Origin: a phage
DNA length: 64,000 bases
Strand: one strand, 5' to 3'
Sequence record: PQ724393.1
The notes beneath the pieces are model-generated. The model was not told where the DNA came from. It ran no database searches and was given only the letters and a program-made list of their open reading frames with translations. Below, piece after piece: positions 27,125-27,397 of this stretch; the stretch's first letter is position 1, and the number at the start of each line of letters is the position of its first letter. The position numbers were made by a program, and so were the translations under genes.

Positions 27125-27397
27125 TTATTTTAGATAAATTGCGTATTTTTTATAACCAGCCGTCTCGTGGCGCAGCCCTTTTTCATTAGCAAAACGTTCA
27201 ATATTGTTAATTTGATTCTGGTCTAGTTCTGAAGTATCAAATACAAAAAAGTTTCGCTTATTGCCTAAAGTTACGTGATTAGTCAAATCGATGTTATAGA
27301 GATGATTTATATTATCAATCATGGTCTTAACAGATTTGTTAATTTTTACTTCTTCATTAAGAATAGATTCAGCGATAAATTCTTGATAGGTTTTCAT
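27125..27397 (-). CDS. internal-protein-like protein with capsid targeting sequence ([10 protein letters not shown]) at the ipI locus
   Basis: start set at the CTS methionine (ATGA overlap with 57B stop); about 90 aa. Confidence 0.6.

Follow-up and report, generated by a model that had tools for sequence, protein, structure and literature searches.

What occupies the ipI locus of a T4-like phage when the resident gene is not ipI? The question is raised by a 64,000-nucleotide stretch of phage DNA (sequence record PQ724393.1, hereafter the window), in which a gene next to 57B, the position held by ipI in T4, encodes a small protein with an N-terminal capsid targeting sequence (CTS). The open reading frame (ORF) list and the sequence place this gene on the minus strand at 27125..27397, with its ATG at 27397 and 90 codons followed by a stop codon. 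An earlier sequence-only reading could not recognize the product as the T4 internal protein (IP) known as IPI and left it without a name. As judged from its sequence, the occupant is Ip9, a polymorphic T-even internal protein that has already been named. The separation from IPI stands, while the lack of a name does not, since phage IME08 encodes a protein annotated as Ip9 that has 100% identity with the window protein.

Identity of the Occupant

The assignment to Ip9 extends well beyond a single record. Identity is 96% with the ip9 product of VR5 and 78% with the Ip9 of RB15 (UniProt Q38376), and the proteins from RB15, RB32, and RB33 fall in a range of 77–79%. The IME08 record notes that its own protein is 'similar to RB15 and K3 Ip9'. 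A match to PHROG 7673, 'internal head protein', covers positions 1–90 of 90 (E=2.9e-56). The Ip9 proteins of RB15, K3, RB32, VR5/VR7, and IME08 all share with the window protein a length of 90 amino acids (aa), a CTS, and the locus. The arrangement differs from that in IME08, VR5, and RB32, in that ip9 is the sole cassette in the window and abuts 57B, whereas those phages have one or two more. Over the interval 26400–28100, the window matches Escherichia phage fDHCT2 (OR427838.1) with 100% identity, and Ip9 is labeled there only as a hypothetical protein. Identity over this interval with Dhakavirus phages, e.g., IME08 and VR5, is 90–95%.

The pattern of substitution indicates that the gene is maintained. 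Against its orthologue in the Tequatrovirus RB32, ip9 has 58 nucleotide differences, 37 of which are at third codon positions. Synonymous divergence (dS) is 1.93 and nonsynonymous divergence (dN) is 0.10, for a dN/dS of 0.05 that reflects strong purifying selection; ip9 is therefore a working gene. The same ratio and the share of third-position differences rule out a chance ORF or a pseudogene, and the full-length PHROG match and the roughly 200 phage records with tblastn matches to the mature part also speak against a chance ORF.

Ip9 Is Distinct from IPI

T4 IPI (PF11634, PDB 2JUB), an inhibitor of the GmrS/GmrD type IV nuclease, occupies the same locus and is the natural point of comparison. 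The two proteins are alike in having an N-terminal targeting propeptide that is cut after a Glu, and delivery by injection is presumed for both. The mature forms are also similar in size and charge, with 76 aa and an isoelectric point (pI) of 9.0 for IPI and 80 aa and a pI of 8.0 for Ip9. The propeptides differ in length, 19 aa in IPI and 10 aa in Ip9, and beyond them the two proteins share no sequence or profile similarity. High identity to T4 IPI was not found; the BLASTP alignment is confined to the N terminus (E=0.008), and profile–profile comparison with hhalign aligned 11 columns, all of them in the CTS. T4 IPI matches PF11634 (IPI_T4) at 7.3e-54 and PHROG 4363, and the window protein matches neither. 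No homologue of mature IPI was found by tblastn anywhere in the 64-kb window.

The predicted fold is different as well. Pfam (E<=0.1) and NCBIfam scans matched Ip9 to no family, and searches of PDB sequences with the single sequence and with a profile gave nothing credible (best E=0.47). An AlphaFold2 model built from a 32-sequence alignment is confident, with a mean pLDDT of 88.8 and a pTM of 0.72. It places a helix over the CTS (residues 4–14) and, after a short linker, a helix at 21–34, strands at 42–47 and 50–54, a second helix at 60–72, and strands at 76–79 and 84–88. Mature Ip9 is thus predicted to be a compact domain of about 70 residues with an alpha-beta-beta-alpha-beta-beta topology, unrelated to IPI. 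Mature IPI consists of two beta-sheets with N- and C-terminal helices at the flanks (PMC3012670; PDB 2JUB), and the Ip9 model is unlike that published description. The periplasmic domains of the type II secretion proteins GspM/GspL and of PilO have a permuted ferredoxin-like version of the doubled alpha-beta-beta unit, with low scores and 2–16% identity to Ip9. Their biology, periplasmic assembly, is unrelated, and we read the likeness as that of a common small fold and not as homology.

It could be argued that the gene is an ipI that has diverged strongly, or else a remnant in decay or an ORF that arose by chance. The N termini of Ip9 and IPI are alike, and decayed chimeras are known elsewhere in this locus, such as an ip7/ip9 fusion without a CTS in OLB35. 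The tests described here refute this explanation, to which we attach next to no probability. Specifically, a divergent IPI is rejected by a likeness that ends at the CTS, the missing PF11634 match, and the different predicted fold, and the same results bear out the earlier claim that the occupant is distinct from T4 IPI.

Predicted Capsid Targeting and Processing

The first ten codons of ip9 (27368..27397, minus strand) encode a CTS that ends in the gp21 motif I-A-E and is identical to residues 1–10 of T4 IPIII. In IPIII these ten residues are the experimentally defined CTS and are enough for packaging, and gp21 cleaves after L/I-x-E (PMC9026906). Ip9 contains only two such motifs, IAE (residues 8–10) and LNE (residues 13–15), so cleavage at the first is predicted to yield a mature protein of 80 aa, and use of the second one of 75 aa. 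The 80-aa form would be encoded by 27128..27367 (minus strand) and have a mass of 9.4 kDa and a pI of about 8, with the folded domain at residues ~21–88; allowing for both forms, the predictions are about 9 kDa, a pI of 8–9, and a net charge of about +1 to +2. The sequence-only reading had described a CTS protein with a mature part of roughly 80 aa at the ipI position, in agreement with the 80 aa that remain after the IPIII-type CTS.

The partners for such a protein are encoded in the same window. The gp21 prohead core protease, the expected remover of the CTS, is found at 57813..58448 (plus strand; Pfam PF03420, Peptidase_S77, E=6.4e-103), and the gp22 scaffolding core protein, toward which a CTS directs its cargo, at 58479..59294 (plus strand; Pfam PF25623, T4_CASP, E=6e-90). 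The gp20 portal protein, gp67, and gp23 are also encoded in the window. Ip9 therefore has the sequence-level features by which T-even internal proteins are known, i.e., a CTS, a cleavage motif, gp21 and gp22 in the genome, and a place in a variable IP locus. Of the two such loci, Ip9 is at the one between 57B and trna.4, and the other is near gene e. It would fall in the same class of coinjected proteins as T4 IPII and IPIII, inhibitors of the GmrSD systems of ECOR21 and ECOR17, and the CTS decapeptide of IPIII is identical to its own. IPII and IPIII differ from Ip9 in their unrelated mature sequences and in their location at the other IP locus.

Three more CTS-bearing ORFs are found in the window, all on the minus strand, bringing the candidate injected proteins of this phage to at least four. 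One encodes 119 aa beginning MKTYQQFITE (14475..14834), and another is a 198-aa homologue of IPIII with 85% identity to the T4 protein (15374..15970). The third encodes 154 aa beginning MKTYNEFLTE (24676..25140; PHROG 2280, 'unknown function') and adjoins tRNA genes outside the slot between 57B and trna.4. At 11754..18014, a region outside the window, the fDHCT2 record has alt-like ADP-ribosyltransferase genes in a tandem array of three, each about 2.1 kb long. The Alt protein of T4 is packaged and injected. The fDHCT2 record also annotates denA and dam.

A Variable Slot Between 57B and trna.4

In T4 the gene order is 57A, 57B, ipI, trna.4, trna.3, trna.2, and the slot that holds ip9 in the window, from 57B to trna.4, is the T4 ipI slot. 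The 57B gene (27394..27849, minus strand; Pfam PF23474, Acb1, E=8.4e-59; PHROG 755) is the upstream neighbor in the direction of transcription. The sequence-only reading placed ip9 upstream of 57B, which is right in plus-strand coordinates only; by transcription, ip9 lies immediately downstream. The downstream boundary of the locus is a trna.4 homologue at 26871..27056 (minus strand; PHROG 1692, E=3.9e-33), identified also from the annotation of fDHCT2, VR5, and IME08.

The content of this slot differs in each phage examined, as expected from the hypervariability that had been ascribed to the locus. T4 has ipI, VR5 has ip8 and ip9, and the window has ip9 alone. RB32 has Ip5, Ip9, and Ip7, annotated as 'replaces ipI' and 'flanked by 43 bp direct repeat'. 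OLB35 has ipI and a CTS-less ip7/ip9 chimera. IME08 has three CTS ORFs, orf69, Ip8, and Ip9, of which only Ip9 is annotated. An apparent 500-bp gap between Ip9 and 57B in the IME08 record (HM071924.1) holds the two unannotated ORFs, both on the minus strand at 4020..4244 and 4323..4532 of the extracted stretch; one product is Ip8-like with 74 aa, and the other has 69 aa and begins MKTYNEFLTE.

A comparison with IME08 suggests how ip9 could come to stand alone. Window positions 27340..27450 were aligned with positions 3960..4585 of the extracted IME08 stretch. The 57B/ip9 junction of the window reads on its left side as the 57B/orf69 junction of IME08 and on its right side as the ip8/ip9 junction of IME08, and the change from one to the other occurs within AAAATGAAAAC, which the two have in common where the CTS begins. 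Such a structure is as expected from deletion by recombination between CTS-coding repeats. Relative to IME08, the loss of two cassettes through such repeats would produce the signature found in the window.

The chimera in OLB35 (MH992122.1, 2558..2791) is annotated as 'ip7 protein', starts with GTG, and has no CTS. The product matches Ip7 in its N-terminal part (PHROG 2667) but ends in 35 residues that correspond to the Ip9 C terminus and not to the Ip7 C terminus found in RB32. This gene is probably a recombination remnant.

Variability at the IP loci has reportedly been described since Repoila et al. in 1994. More than 30 IP variants are known, at two variable IP loci, and PeSL-like elements have been described flanking IP genes (PMC2839356). 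The cassette array, the repeats, and a promoter element following ip9 (described below) together fit this published picture (PMC2839356).

A Wider Family of the Mature Domain

Ip9 and the variability of its locus were already known, and the only new element in this analysis is the wider family of the mature domain. A tblastn search with the mature 80 aa found about 200 phage records, about 150 of them T-even relatives at 75–100% identity. The same search with mature IPI found 292 records, nearly all at >=90% identity. By these counts Ip9 is one of the common occupants of the locus and is about as widespread as IPI.

Outside the T-even relatives, the domain turned up, unexpectedly, in two other settings. 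CTS-less proteins of 72–74 aa with about 50% identity are encoded by Guernseyvirinae siphophages (CR01, UTEC10, and the Kagunavirus BCH953P1) and by Seuratvirus phages (SHIN8 and ECP2304). In ECP2304 (OR880647.1) the ORF (MATITKVQQAIIDNIEHLY...NGYKRWALMVK) is unannotated and lies on the plus strand at 1932..2216 of the extracted stretch. The CTS-less homologues begin at the position that matches Ip9 residue 22. A more distant version, at about 33% identity, is found inside large proteins of Ackermannviridae-like phages, i.e., gp077 of SKML-39 (660 aa, at the C terminus), a 1124-aa protein of LHE287, and a metagenomic protein of 861 aa. The SKML-39 and LHE287 proteins belong to PHROG 3867 and are encoded just upstream of DNA primase (758..2740 and 1..3100, respectively, of the extracted stretches).

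When 1.84 billion representative proteins were searched exhaustively with a profile, only 27 matched at E<=0.001, and there was no informative Pfam domain among them. Most of the 27 are 67–95 aa long, some with CTS-like N termini (MKSFKEFVTE, MKTFQEFLNE) and others without. A second, word-indexed profile search added only further small proteins. Three residues, Arg68, Gly81, and Ala86, are the only ones that are strictly or almost strictly conserved throughout the family. In a T4-like contig, a CTS-bearing relative maps close to rIIA/rIIB and not at a canonical IP locus.

Longer contigs from phages of about 40 kb show the CTS-less homologues surrounded by small genes, in early or replication regions. 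In metagenomic phages of this size, the gene immediately before a 79-aa Ip9-like gene is always a 68-aa zf-DksA/TraR-like gene, whose stop codon overlaps the start codon of the Ip9-like gene. The gene pair was located on three metagenomic contigs (4795..5240, 2162..2607, and 4795..5240 of the extracted stretches), and the genes around it vary between contigs. No description of the CTS-less or embedded homologues was found in the open-access literature searched. A tentative proposal, one we would not yet bet on, is that mature Ip9 is an autonomous domain of about 70 residues, two alpha-beta-beta units, that circulates among unrelated phages as a pan-phage counter-defense module. Its target would possibly not be GmrSD, and the T-even phages would have made it an injected weapon.

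Candidate Expression Signals and Neighboring Genes

The ATG of ip9 overlaps the stop codon of 57B as ATGA, which suggests that the two genes are translationally coupled. A Shine–Dalgarno sequence, GAGGA, can be read at 27404..27408 (minus strand), 6 nt before the ATG and within the 3' end of 57B. The 57B product belongs to the Acb1 anti-CBASS nuclease family and is thus a known counter-defense gene, with ip9 a candidate one. A candidate late promoter, TATAAAGA, lies at 27431..27438 (minus strand), 33 nt upstream of the ip9 ATG, and matches the T4 late promoter TATAAATA at 7 of 8 positions. In VR5 an exact TATAAATA stands ahead of the first ip cassette.

A second promoter-like element, found by promoter scan and inspection of the sequence, occupies the intergenic region after ip9 and before trna.4 (27091..27121, minus strand). 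It is a sigma-70-like TTTACA-N17-TACTAT cassette, preceded by TG, and it carries a GGGCT...AGCCC inverted repeat. The whole 31-nt pattern recurs with one mismatch at 61234..61264 on the minus strand, and the junction alignment shows that the -10 and downstream sequence recurs before ip8 in IME08 and VR5. The element is similar to cassettes of a promoter and a stem-loop that reportedly flank IP genes (PMC2839356). T4 has a cluster of eight tRNAs and segB between gene e and ipI. In the window counterpart only tRNA-Arg(TCT) and tRNA-Met(CAT) remain, at 25591..25665 and 25671..25747 on the minus strand.

Proposed Role of Ip9

What would such a protein do? Following T4 biology, the Ip9 precursor would be made late and carried by its CTS into the prohead core, where gp21 cleavage behind Glu10, with possibly a further cut behind Glu15, would leave a mature protein of 75–80 aa. 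This protein would be stored with the packaged DNA and then injected alongside it. Once in the cytoplasm it would, by analogy, bind and block a first-line host defense ahead of all phage gene expression. The target would most plausibly be a type IV nuclease like GmrSD/BrxU, which depends on DNA modification, a guess that follows from the inhibition of one GmrSD variant by each of Ip1, Ip2, and Ip3. The inhibition is specific in each case, with Ip1 acting on the GmrSD of strain CT596, Ip2 on the ECOR21 enzyme, and Ip3 on the ECOR17 enzyme, and these three are the T4 internal proteins that have been tested to date (PMC12373910). An anti-restriction role for Ip9 is suggested by analogy with these three proteins.

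Other observations are consistent with action inside the cell. IPIII is active from a plasmid without its CTS (PMC9391042) and therefore acts in the cytoplasm. The position of the CTS-less homologues among small early or accessory genes of siphophages fits a cytoplasmic, early-acting job and not one in the capsid. The phage also carries denA. In T4, denA is associated with DNA in which cytosine is replaced, and it is on such DNA that type IV enzymes act; this association counts in favor of the proposed role. A homologue of the putative UDP-arabinose pathway protein of RB69 is found in IME08. Overall, Ip9 is probably a packaged, processed, and injected inhibitor of a first-line host defense. 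Within that reading, an enzyme of the GmrSD/BrxU type and some other kind of target would each take roughly half of the weight.

Several points weigh against this proposal. No function has been published for Ip9, and the open-access literature searched mentions neither the phage protein nor its sequence motifs and yielded no proteomic data on it; Ip9 is also absent from the supplements of the paper on Ip2 and Ip3. The presence of Ip9 in the virion, its processing, and its injection are extrapolated from T4 biology. There is no exact TATAAATA directly upstream of ip9, and the nearest on the minus strand is at 30806..30813; with a 7/8 match the only one close by, late expression is plausible. 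In addition, Ip9 homologues occur in phages of quite different DNA chemistries (Guernseyvirinae, Seuratvirus, and Ackermannviridae), and this spread makes a target that senses glucosylated hydroxymethylcytosine (hmC) less certain.

The last of these points leads to a different account of the target, in which mature Ip9 is an injected effector that acts not on a type IV restriction enzyme but on a defense or host function shared regardless of DNA modification, and which the T-even phages preload by way of the CTS. The domain stands alone in proteins of 72–79 aa in Guernseyvirinae, Seuratvirus, and the metagenomic phages of about 40 kb and is embedded in the proteins of 660–1124 aa of Ackermannviridae-like phages, lineages without the hmC-sugar chemistry of the T-even phages. 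The anti-CBASS nuclease encoded next door by 57B suggests that the locus is not devoted to anti-restriction alone. However, the known targets of internal proteins are all GmrSD variants (PMC12373910), and distant homologues need not share a target given that small anti-defense folds often retarget. Seuratvirus and Ackermannviridae are also phages with hypermodified DNA, which leaves room for a modification-dependent nuclease. We regard a target of this broader kind as a possibility worth entertaining but on the doubtful side. It is much less probable, and indeed very unlikely, that Ip9 serves mainly in the structure or packing of the head, through DNA charge neutralization or core assembly, and has no specific host target. 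Internal proteins are embedded in the packaged DNA, with lysines touching DNA phosphates (PMC3012670), and the mildly basic character of mature Ip9 (pI 8–9) would suit such a role. The net charge, though, is only about +1 to +2, and a locus that is dispensable and swapped between close relatives is a poor fit with a structural need. Moreover, phages with no T4-type core encode CTS-less homologues in their early regions.

Implications for T4-Like Phages

An injected inhibitor of first-line defense, the role favored here for Ip9, would matter to T4-like phages at the very start of infection. Internal proteins reach the cell before phage gene expression and therefore decide the survival of T4-like phages against first-line nucleases. 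Their action bears on host range and on the choice of phages for therapy. Targets have been assigned for three of the more than 30 IP variants, and all are GmrSD variants. The CTS-less homologues in small siphophages suggest that the target of Ip9 may be of general importance and not specific to the T-even phages.
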